Source: a virus
UHGV virus genome: UHGV-0238331
Direction: 5' to 3' (one strand)
DNA: 10,948 bases
The notes below the pieces were generated by a model. That model searched no databases. It worked only from the letters and a program-made list of their open reading frames with translations, and was not told the DNA's origin. The translations under genes and the position numbers were made by a program. Shown in pieces: positions 714 through 10,100 of the stretch. Every line of letters starts with the position of its first letter. The stretch's first letter is position 1.

Positions 714-1025
714 TTATGCTACAGAGGAACAAGCTGGCGGGTAATTCAGCGTAGTGAATACCGGCATCTCCATCTTGTATGCGTAATGATACTCAGCAGT
801 TGCTCCAGCAGACGCTTTCCAGCCAGGAAGCATCAAAATAGCATCAGCACAACGAAGCATTGCAAAGCAAATATCCATGTATTCACGTTGTGTCAGACCA
901 TTAGGCAAAGTGGCTGGATTCAAGACAGAGTGACCATGTCGTGACAAACGATCTGCCTCTTTATTAAAGGCGTCACGATTAAAGTTCTCATATCCCGTCA
1001 TTGGCCCGGCAATATAAATTTTCAT
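714..1025 (-). CDS. DUF4406-like (nucleoside 2-deoxyribosyltransferase-like fold) protein, 103 aa
   Basis: ORF begins MKIYIAGPMTGYENFN...VLNPA...ADAILMLPGWKASAGATAEY, the pattern I associate with DUF4406 proteins. Co-oriented and 41 bp downstream of Rz. Family assignment is from memory. Confidence 0.55.
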   Translation of the reverse strand: MKIYIAGPMTGYENFNRDAFNKEADRLSRHGHSVLNPATLPNGLTQREYMDICFAMLRCADAILMLPGWKASAGATAEYHYAYKMEMPVFTTLNYPPACSSVA

Positions 1026-2279: not shown

Positions 2280-3332
2280 TTATTTCCCCACCAGCTCGTT
2301 TATCTCTTTCACTGTCTGGTTAAACCGCTCTGACTCAAGCTCAACACCTAAGGCCCGACGCCCCAGCGCCATTGCTGCTTTTATTGTGGAACCGGATCCC
2401 ATAAAGAAATCAGCAACCAGATCACCAGGTCGACTACTGGCATTGATTATTTGCCGGAGCATATCCGCCGGTTTCTCGCACGGATGTTTACCCGGGTAGA
2501 ACTGAACGGGCTTATGCGTCCAGACATCGGTATAAGGCACGGAGACTGATACGGAGAAATAGCGCCGGAGAGATTTAAACTCATCCAGCAATTCAGAATA
2601 TTTGCGATTCAGTGAATCATAAGATGCCACCAGCTGGTGGTGTGGTTGTTCCAGTTGTTGTTCCTGAAACTTCTCTGCCGCTATACGGGAAAACAGTGCC
2701 TGTAACTTCCGATAGTCAGCCTCATTCGGCAACTGCCACTGACTGGCACCAAACCAGTGGGAAACCATATTTTTCTTACCTGTAGCTTCGGCAATTTGTT
2801 TTGCCGTTATACCCAGTTCGGCACGAGCATCCCTGAAATACGATATCAGCGGTGCCATTATGTGCTGTTTGAGTTCCCTTTCTTTTGCCGCATAGCCGTC
2901 ATTTTTGGGCTGGTATGGCCCCTGATAATGTTCGGCAAACAGAATGCGCTCTGTTGCCGGGAAATACGCCCGCAGGCTTTCCTTGTTGCACCTGTTCCAG
3001 CGTCCTGACGGCTTCGCCCAGATAATGTGATTCAGCACATTAAAGCGTTCACGCATCATAATTTCGGTGTCAGATGCCAGGCGATGACCACAGAACAGGT
3101 AAAGACTTCCGGCGGGCTTCAGTACCCGCCAGAACTGCGCCAGACACTGGTCCAGCCATTTCAGGTAATCATCGTCCCCCTTCCACTGGTTATCCCAGCT
3201 CTCGGGCTTCACTTTAAAGTATGGCGGGTCTGTGACTATCAGATCGACAGAGTTTTCCGGTAAGGTCTGGATAAATTCCAGGCAATCAGCGTTGATTAAC
3301 TCACAACTGGATATTTTTACAGTATTAGCCAT
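2280..3332 (-). CDS. DNA methyltransferase, beta-class order (DPPY before the SAM motif); N6-adenine or N4-cytosine
   Basis: 350 aa. Motif IV DPPY near the N-terminus (DLIVTDPPYF) and motif I near the C-terminus (DLVADFFMGSGST), with a roughly 200-aa central region presumed to recognise the target. Located between Q/pR' and the lysis cassette. Confidence 0.85.
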   Translation of the reverse strand: MANTVKISSCELINADCLEFIQTLPENSVDLIVTDPPYFKVKPESWDNQWKGDDDYLKWLDQCLAQFWRVLKPAGSLYLFCGHRLASDTEIMMRERFNVLNHIIWAKPSGRWNRCNKESLRAYFPATERILFAEHYQGPYQPKNDGYAAKERELKQHIMAPLISYFRDARAELGITAKQIAEATGKKNMVSHWFGASQWQLPNEADYRKLQALFSRIAAEKFQEQQLEQPHHQLVASYDSLNRKYSELLDEFKSLRRYFSVSVSVPYTDVWTHKPVQFYPGKHPCEKPADMLRQIINASSRPGDLVADFFMGSGSTIKAAMALGRRALGVELESERFNQTVKEINELVGK

Positions 3333-6923: not shown

Positions 6924-7138
6924 TTAAGTGTGGGTGCGTTGAGGATGCCTGACACATGAGAGGTGGCGAGGGATTTCTCCCCCGCCTGGTCTCTTACTCC
7001 TCAGATTCGTAAGCTGTGAAGACAGCGACCTCCGTCTGGCCGGTTCGGATTCGTACCTCGCAGAGGTCTTTCCTCGTTACCAGTGCCGTCACTATAATAG
7101 TGATGCATATGATGATTAGGGTTTAAACCTCTCCGAAA

Positions 7139-9063: not shown

Positions 9064-9207
9064 TTCACTACCGCCCTTTCGGGCGGCCTCCTGATGATTT
9101 GAGGGTACAGAAATCCCTCCGGTTAAGGATTAAATTTTATTTACAGAACTGAATTTAATTATTCAGATATACGTATCTGTAACCTTACGAACCAACTCAC
9201 TGGATGC
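9064..9207 (-). promoter_or_regulatory. Structured intergenic region: GAAA-tetraloop hairpin next to the start codon plus AT-rich dyad symmetries
   Basis: Hairpin CCGCCC-TTTC-GGGCGG (9071-9086) lies 7 nt upstream of the 60-aa ORF start. Second inverted repeat GAGGG...CCCTC (9101-9118). AT-rich segment 9121-9185 contains CTGAAT-TTAATT-ATTCAG and TTACAGA...TCTGTAA inverted repeats. Confidence 0.3.
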
Positions 9208-9681
9208 CTATTTCATAAAAATAATCCAGTGGGTTTTATCGTTTTTTCCTGTTCGTTGACCGATAACAGGTTTTCTGTCGGTCAGTACCAATATCTGGCG
9301 AACAGGTATTTGCGTTTCATTCCATTTAAAAATCAGAACGCCGGATGGACGCAACACACGAAAGGCTTCTTTAAATCCCTGCCGCAAATCATCACGCTAG
9401 GTATCTTTATTCAGCCGTCCATATTTCTTTCCCATCCAGGCGTTATCACCAACACGCTCAAGATGCGGAGGGTCGAATATAACCATCGAAAAAGATGCGT
9501 CTGCAAATGGTAGTGCACGAAAATCAGCTATCAGATCAGGACTGATAATCAGACATCGTCCATCACACAATGTGTGCTCTTCCTTTCTGATATCGCTAAA
9601 TATCGCCAGGTCGTCATTCTTATTGAACCAGAACATGCGACTGCCACAGCACATATCAAGAATGGTTGCCGGTGCACTCAC
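9208..9681 (-). pseudogene. Small phage Dam-like SAM-dependent DNA methyltransferase interrupted by an in-frame amber (TAG) codon
   Basis: The 94-codon ORF (GTG start at 9681) carries motif I (ILDMCCGSR) and motif IV (DPPH) and stops at TAG (complement of 9397-9399). The same frame then runs 58 more sense codons (RDDLRQGFKEAFRVLRPSGVLIFKWNETQ...) to a stop at 9208-9210, giving about 153 codons in total. Confidence 0.6.
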
Positions 9682-10100
9682 TGCGCTACCTCCTGAAAAT
9701 TACCCTGATAGAAAGCCAGTACACGCTGCATAGCTTCGCTCTTCCGGCACTCGCGACAGATTATATTCAGGCGCCTGTCGTAGCGGCGTATTTCTCCGTC
9801 TGGTAATGACCAGATAAGGTCCGGATCAACCGCAGATGGTTTCTTCGGCTTTGCCCTTGAGAGCTTTTTACGGGCATTTTGCCAGTCCTTACGCGCCTGT
9901 TCAGACGGGAATAACCCGTAATCAGAGTTGTATACATCGCCACTGGCAACCAGCTCTCTGGCCAGAACGCTCATCAGATATCTTGTTGCCCCAGTTTTAG
10001 TTTCCAGTTGTCGTAACGTCTCGCGCCCACTCTGGCGTACGAGTTCAACAACCTGCCCTTTAATTTTTTCTCGCTCTTCTTGTGTAAAAACTTTTGCCAC
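9678..10100 (-). CDS. ren: Ren-like protein (homolog of lambda Ren), 140 aa
   Basis: GTG start 4 nt after AGGAGG. C-terminus NIICRECRKSEAMQRVLAFY resembles lambda Ren NLVFKECRQSAAMKRVLAVY, and a central TGAT-containing helix region is also similar. Comparison is from memory. Confidence 0.6.
   Translation of the reverse strand: MAKVFTQEEREKIKGQVVELVRQSGRETLRQLETKTGATRYLMSVLARELVASGDVYNSDYGLFPSEQARKDWQNARKKLSRAKPKKPSAVDPDLIWSLPDGEIRRYDRRLNIICRECRKSEAMQRVLAFYQGNFQEVAQ

Follow-up and report, generated by a model that had tools for sequence, protein, structure and literature searches.

A known precedent for the lesion reported here is the lacI gene, in which Coulondre, Miller, Farabaugh and Gilbert (1978, as summarized in a review, PMC12606429) mapped amber hotspots to the second C of CCAGG. 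The locus analysed here, a small methyltransferase gene of a lambdoid prophage, is like those hotspots in that a G:C to A:T change at the second C of CCAGG creates the amber codon. In lacI the change turns CAG (Gln) into TAG on the coding strand and was scored in the laboratory, whereas here it is found in natural prophage populations and the methylated C lies on the non-coding strand of the gene, so that TGG (Trp) becomes TAG.

In E. coli O157:H7 an equivalent of our allele has already been recorded as a pseudogene: TAG at codon 95 (TAG95) is fixed there in a prophage remnant, and RefSeq gives the gene as 'pseudo, internal stop'. This O157:H7 pseudogene (e.g. EEL45_RS29330, NZ_CP033605.1) is the same gene as the one in the window, by which we mean the whole stretch of DNA analysed (10,948 nt, UHGV virus genome UHGV-0238331); the two have the same length, the same TAG at codon 95 and a protein that is identical from codon 44 on. 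They differ in the first six codons (MTGHAA in O157:H7 compared to MSAPAT in the window) and at three further residues, D20, R25 and R43 in O157:H7 being N20, L25 and C43 in the window. Their surroundings differ as well: the O157:H7 copy adjoins a yfdR-like gene in a decayed prophage and has an Eae-like gene and a yfdR remnant as its upstream neighbours, whereas the window has DUF977 and replication genes upstream and an apparently complete early-to-late region. Among intact members of the family (157-162 aa, phrog_954), WP_021575571.1 of E. coli O177:H21 is 98.7% identical to our gene at the nucleotide level, has the same length as the window frame and shares its neighbourhood of replisome organiser, DUF977, methyltransferase and DUF7167; it differs from the window in having TGG at codon 95 together with D20, R25, R43 and I132.

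The features that define the frame and its expression signals are these:

9208..9681, minus strand: frame of a small class I SAM-dependent methyltransferase, very probably a pseudogene now; 157 codons with the terminal stop TAG at 9208-9210 (translation, phrog_954, homologues)
9397..9399, minus strand: in-frame amber TAG at codon 95, reading CTA on the plus strand; ancestral TGG (Trp) by alignment with the intact allele
9397..9681, minus strand: truncated 94-aa product that keeps motif I (DMCCGS) and motif IV (DPPH) (ORF list, model secondary structure)
9689..9694, minus strand: Shine-Dalgarno sequence AGGAGG, 7 nt 5' of the GTG start, read from the sequence

The reverse complement of 9208-9681 consists of 157 sense codons and a terminal TAG, and its single internal stop is the TAG at codon 95; none of the 16 other main ORFs in the window has an internal stop. 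A preliminary description of this DNA had the coordinates and the codon number of the amber right, as translation confirms, and it correctly placed the SAM-binding motif (LDMCCGS, residues 8-14) and DPPH (70-73) before the stop and RVLRPSGVLIF (108-118) after it. Its picture of a frame that is open except for a single TAG also holds, and its counts of 'about 153' codons in all and '58' downstream of the amber have to be replaced by 157 and 62. The GTG start at 9679-9681 shares bases with the TGA that ends the upstream DUF977 gene, the two together reading GTGA. Translation from this start would end after residue 94, giving a product that retains the loop for SAM binding and the catalytic loop with DPPH; gene calls on 8 public contigs give exactly this 94-aa protein. 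We also considered a separate C-terminal fragment made by restart; the first in-frame start past the amber is the TTG of codon 99 (9385-9387), at which initiation is unlikely as the preceding sequence, AAAGATACCTAGCGTGATGAT, holds no Shine-Dalgarno sequence.

Our data indicate that the small methyltransferase gene is very probably a nonsense pseudogene of an ordinary kind, which arose at a mutation hotspot that is well understood, since several versions of the gene that are unrelated to one another carry the same knock-out. The stop stands where homologues have a sense codon. In intact alleles such as WP_021575571.1, codon 95 aligns as TGG, and in two alignments the encoded Trp is invariant (35 of 35 and 40 of 40 homologues), which settles the question raised in the preliminary description of whether Gln, Trp or Tyr is the normal residue. 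About 25 residues downstream of codon 95 are likewise invariant, including G102, E105, F107-L110, G114, F118-W120, Q142 and K149, and this conservation, together with that of Trp95, rules out that the protein naturally ends at codon 94, an outcome that the same description had allowed for. Across 31 unique intact alleles we obtained a pN/pS of 0.16 for the whole gene and of 0.17 for codons 96-157, indicating that the segment lost in the window is under purifying selection where the gene is intact. The stop is also real: the gene and 60 nt on each side are 100% identical on contigs L005-L010, each of which comes from a different one of six samples; outside this region, L005 and the window have 48 differences. 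A structural model places a helix (95-109) and three strands of the Rossmann sheet (110-118, 138-141 and 153-156) beyond the amber, and the truncated product, deprived of these elements and of some 25 invariant residues, should be inactive.

With Trp put back at codon 95, the protein has matches to phrog_954 (E = 1.3e-84), whose label 'DNA methyltransferase' is an annotation name only, and to 4475 database proteins at E <= 1e-5, which shows that the frame is not a chance one. These homologues are mostly 'class I SAM-dependent methyltransferase' entries of 157-170 aa from Escherichia, Salmonella, Klebsiella, Serratia, Dickeya and other Enterobacterales. Pfam gave a single, marginal match, to Methyltransf_11 (22.5 bits against a cut-off of 21.2); NCBIfam gave no specific family (best 18 bits against a cut-off of 242), and a sequence search of the PDB returned no significant relative (best E = 0.076). 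An AlphaFold model made from a 40-sequence alignment (pLDDT 77, pTM 0.78) is a minimal Rossmann-fold methyltransferase, and its Foldseek neighbours are Bud23, Trm11, an archaeal m4(2)C rRNA synthase, nucleomethylin and M.TaqI (TM 0.42-0.56). The DMCCGS loop and a Foldseek probability of 1.0 to many class I methyltransferases place the protein in class I (Rossmann fold). Motif IV, DPPH at residues 70-73, has the (D/N/S)PP(Y/F/W/H) form associated with methyltransferases of exocyclic amino groups (N6-A, N4-C or N2-G), with D70, P72 and H73 invariant and P71 nearly so. This motif, its spacing of about 55 residues from motif I and the absence of a target-recognition domain point to a putative amino-group methyltransferase.

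The label 'Dam-like' in the preliminary description is not borne out by these searches. Dam, the alpha-class GATC adenine methyltransferase (PF02086), and the window protein are both SAM-binding and have a motif IV of the (D/N)PP(Y/H) type, but the window protein has 157 residues compared to about 270 in Dam and carries no target-recognition domain between or after motifs I and IV. It has no match to PF02086 at E <= 1 and none to PF01555, and its nearest folds are generic class I methyltransferases and not Dam. YfdM of K-12, a 'putative methyltransferase' of prophage CPS-53 that lies near yfdR as the O157 copy does, was considered as a homologue and rejected, as it shows no similarity (BLASTP E = 8.8). 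In a study of STEC methylomes (PMC6602927) the protein is absent from the putative methyltransferases of strain 95JB1, a carrier of the TGG allele, and thus no activity is assigned to it there. A subset of the family (P0016, P0058, P0063, P0087 and P0096, from Leclercia, Citrobacter, Enterobacter and Klebsiella) reaches about 248 aa through a conserved C-terminal extension of about 90 aa (containing WPAEV and, further on, LPAHHQRRLKHHINRMWLEKMP), which may be a partner or targeting domain.

All genes in the window lie on the minus strand; together they are the part of a lambdoid prophage that runs from the early-right genes to the lysis genes. Their order, and the two genes that bear most closely on the pseudogene, are as follows:

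Gene order, first part: replication protein O (cut by the window end), DUF977/Ren-like 'LygF', small methyltransferase, DUF7167, two small ORFs
Gene order, second part: P63C-domain protein, Rem, DUF968/YdfU, RusA, antiterminator Q, phrog_331 protein
Gene order, last part: 350-aa PF01555 DNA methyltransferase, holin, lysozyme, Rz
9678..10100, minus strand: DUF977/Ren-like ('LygF') gene (PF06163, E = 6.9e-29; phrog_142), its TGA overlapping the methyltransferase start
2280..3332, minus strand: second methyltransferase, an intact 350-aa beta-class N6/N4 DNA methyltransferase (PF01555, E = 4.8e-43), between antiterminator Q and holin

Complete E. coli genomes and phage records contain at most 59% of the window at a single place. 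L005, a metagenome contig of 11.7 kb, matches the window with 99.3% identity over 7.5 kb. The pair of DUF977 and methyltransferase genes is also present in L003, L005, L011 and L093-L098, and a DUF977/Ren-like gene lies directly upstream of the methyltransferase gene in all examined related loci with such an arrangement. Given the GTGA overlap, the two genes are probably translationally coupled. Since the methyltransferase lacks a recognition domain, one may speculate that the DUF977 protein is its partner. A literature search for 'LygF' returned goose-type lysozyme papers and Salmonella genome notes, and nothing on the gene pair.

The preliminary description had also recognized a second methyltransferase in the same element, and this is the PF01555 protein encoded at 2280-3332. 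The position between Q and holin is the site of the stx genes in Stx phages. The PDB relatives of this protein are M.RsrI, M.MboIIA and CcrM, and in size, class and prophage setting it is, compared by description only, like M.EcoGI and M.EcoGII, prophage-borne, non-specific adenine methyltransferases of the beta class with 349 aa (PMC5778455). Elsewhere in the window, a 103-aa ORF at 714-1025 (minus strand) matches only positions 75-179 of the 249-position profile phrog_355 ('nucleoside 2-deoxyribosyltransferase') and may be a truncated gene. At 6994-7122 (minus strand) there is a remnant of a HokD/RelF-like toxin gene, in which the frame TLIIICITIIVTALVTRKDLCEVRIRTGQTEVAVFTAYESEE is bounded by stops on both sides and a stop and unrelated sequence replace the N-terminus; it resembles HokD, and no Sok or Hok RNA was found in the window at the Rfam gathering score. 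The 144-nt spacer that follows the methyltransferase gene contains a G+C-rich inverted repeat, accgccctttcgggcggc, at 9068-9090, just 5' of the point where DUF7167 starts on the minus strand; no T run follows the repeat on the transcribed strand. In L097-L100 a 158-aa ORF and a ParE/ParD toxin-antitoxin pair stand in place of DUF7167 and the ORFs that follow it, an example of mosaic exchange immediately 3' of the pseudogene.

The base change that made the amber lies in one of two Dcm sites of the gene that could yield a stop codon:

9397..9401, plus strand: former Dcm site, now CTAGG where intact alleles read CCAGG; the change is at 9398, the inner C that Dcm methylates
9436..9440, plus strand: another Dcm site, which overlaps Trp82 and is unchanged in the window; it is the gene's only other Dcm-type nonsense target

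Fifty single-base changes could create a nonsense codon in this gene; 16 are transitions, and only 2, at Trp82 and Trp95, are of the Dcm type, the Trp codons 18, 120 and 152 lying outside Dcm sites. The change seen in the window is one of these two, an inner C to T transition in a CCWGG ancestor at base 9398 on the plus strand. The ancestral ACC-TGG at codons 94-95 forms CCTGG on the coding strand and CCAGG on the plus strand, in which Dcm methylates the inner C. Codon 94 is ACC, so that the Dcm site is present, in 53 of 79 loci, and other alleles have ACA, ACG or ACT there. Deamination of the resulting 5-methylcytosine would give T and, should Vsr repair miss the mismatch, CCAGG would become CTAGG, that is, TGG would become TAG on the coding strand. 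We infer that 5-methylcytosine deamination was the cause of TAG95. The host of the window presumably has an active Dcm, given that its close relatives all come from E. coli; PMC6602927 lists Dcm for strains of STEC.

The gene in the window differs from its nearest intact allele by 6 nt, and every differing codon changes the amino acid (D20N, R25L, R43C through two bases, W95 to stop, and I132V), a pattern indicative of relaxed constraint. R25, replaced by Leu in the window allele, is invariant in the 40-sequence alignment. The haplotype with L25 and C43 is known only in disrupted form, carrying either TAG95 or, in L011, a 1-bp deletion, and the window protein with W95 restored (N20 or D20, with L25/C43) is absent among about 15 billion proteins searched by exact look-up. 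Both R25L and this exclusively disrupted haplotype suggest that the pseudogene is young and not brand new. The preliminary description of a recent inactivation is therefore right as to youth, the nearest intact allele being 6 nt away, and 'fresh' goes too far for a gene that also bears R25L at an invariant residue. Independent lesions occur elsewhere in the family: a TGA at codon 82 in L103, 1-bp deletions in L101 and L011, a deletion in L107, a TAA at codon 119 with an indel in phage PhiR42_1 and a truncated copy in phage HannyBb.

A 55-mer probe in which any 28-base seed is forced across the variable base was applied to 5426 complete E. coli genomes. The TAG version was found in 202 of these genomes, with one copy each; 60 evenly sampled rows of the 202 were all O157:H7, O157, or unlabelled with a similar genome size. 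The TGG version was found in 201 complete E. coli genomes from many lineages, and strain F6321, which appears in both genome lists, carries both. As a rule the gene is retained: among the 80 best IMG/VR loci, 77 have an intact copy, and the two most frequent intact proteins occur on at least 1000 contigs and on 476 contigs.

Exact look-ups and DNA retrieval place TAG95 on five protein haplotypes, which correspond to four DNA haplotype groups: the window type (with the near-identical L095 and L096), L093, L097-L100, and the O157 type. For each group the nearest neighbour is a TGG allele, when 627 nt are compared with the amber site excluded. On this measure L093 is at distance 0 from L003 and L004 at distance 0 from both L039 and L042, the window is at distance 3 from L011, and L097 is at distance 7 from L057. 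For residues 25 and 95, and for residues 95 and 132, all four combinations are present among the compared alleles, which requires either repeated mutation or recombination. As codon 95 lies in a hotspot, the same knock-out has arisen in, or been copied to, several versions of the gene, among them the O157:H7 copy. Furthermore, L102, an O157-type sequence found in 11 similar places besides, carries TAG in place of both Trp82 and Trp95, the two Trp codons in Dcm sites, indicating that the hotspot has acted twice within one gene. The truncated alleles were collected by searching for codon-95 stops, so that their apparent excess at Dcm sites is biased; in a less biased set, the best 80 IMG/VR loci, TAG95 is represented by one haplotype only (3 loci). 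Products of prefix length (81, 100, 119 and 128 aa) were considered as a control for other nonsense sites and abandoned, their counts being confounded by genes cut at contig ends, and thus only DNA-verified cases were used.

The sharing of TAG95 between haplotypes could also be due to a single mutation that then reached the other haplotypes because mosaic lambdoid prophages exchanged it by homologous recombination or by gene conversion over short patches, in which case the Dcm context would be coincidental or would lie behind the first event only, and the window copy would still be a pseudogene. Lambdoid prophages are indeed highly mosaic, as the failure of any single genome to match more than 59% of the window length illustrates, and some genomes hold both TAG and TGG copies between which such a transfer could take place. 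The 260 nt around the amber are, moreover, almost invariant among close alleles, so that a short conversion tract would leave no trace and no flanking markers separate the two routes. Nevertheless, a single origin needs at least three conversions with both breakpoints inside the gene, compared to one hotspot transition for each haplotype group. Two TAG alleles are identical to TGG alleles across the 627 nt, and the TAG at the second Dcm-site Trp codon in some O157-type copies argues that the hotspot mechanism is active in this same gene. We therefore favour repeated deamination over short conversion tracts between co-resident prophages, and regard a single origin as unlikely, if the most serious of the alternatives.

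A different reading of the same recurrence is that loss of the methyltransferase has been positively selected in some E. coli lineages, such as O157:H7 and the lineage of the window's phage, with the Dcm-site codons Trp82 and Trp95 serving as a repeatedly used off-switch for which the hotspot is the fastest route. We think this doubtful. If it were true, the methylation might be harmful to the host or a target of methylation-dependent restriction.

The preliminary description had also raised the possibilities that the amber is read through or that expression is confined to amber-suppressor backgrounds. In this form of conditional expression, suppressor tRNAs (of supE-like hosts or phage-borne) or near-cognate decoding would provide a low dose of full-length protein in some hosts. 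The 62 codons past the TAG are still open, the TAG allele persists across the O157:H7 clone, and the base 3' of the stop is C. Poole et al. are said to have placed UAG-C, in 1995, among the weaker termination contexts. However, the open downstream frame is expected of any young pseudogene, and recoding would be marked by a conserved stop together with a suppressor tRNA or a stimulatory element, whereas this stop is present in 3 of the 80 best IMG/VR loci and is a minority allele at a codon where Trp is invariant in homologues. ARAGORN detected no tRNA gene in the window, no Rfam family was found there at gathering thresholds, and 3 of the 17 window genes, the methyltransferase gene itself and two others, use TAG as their normal stop. 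R25L at an invariant residue and the second amber in some O157-type copies fit a dead gene better than a regulated one. Low-level natural read-through of UAG may be compatible with the sequence, yet read-through that restores function at TAG95 would not be expected, and conditional expression appears to us very improbable.

Equally, the 94-aa protein might itself be useful and selected, for example as a SAM- or partner-binding fragment or as a dominant-negative form acting against intact co-resident copies. Truncation does recur at codon 95 on several haplotypes, a separate PHROGs family, phrog_11564, covers residues 5-93 only, and the expression signals are intact (AGGAGG-N7-GTG and coupling to DUF977). 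The recurrence is explained by the hotspot, however, and a fragment that is missing three strands of the Rossmann sheet is unlikely to fold. The TAG alleles also carry further damaging changes 5' of the stop (R25L, R89W, W82R and W82 to stop), and we give a selected fragment hardly any credence. That TAG95 is a sequencing or assembly artefact, as the preliminary description had asked, has nothing in its favour beyond the fact that it is a single-base difference, and this reading carries a negligible probability, independent assemblies of six samples by two pipelines having given the identical sequence and codon 95 being TAG in 202 complete genomes as well.

The explanation through Dcm and the evidence of a recurring knock-out are of modest added value beyond the preliminary description. 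For annotation, the small ORFs at 9397-9681 and 9208-9387 are to be treated as one pseudogene, and neither as two genes nor as a recoding event; amber suppression or stop-codon reassignment in this element is unsupported by the case. The gene is a clean natural example of the textbook laboratory result that Dcm-methylated CCWGG sites yield amber codons. Of more interest than the stop codon, arguably, is the question of the substrate of the widespread 157-aa DPPH methyltransferase.
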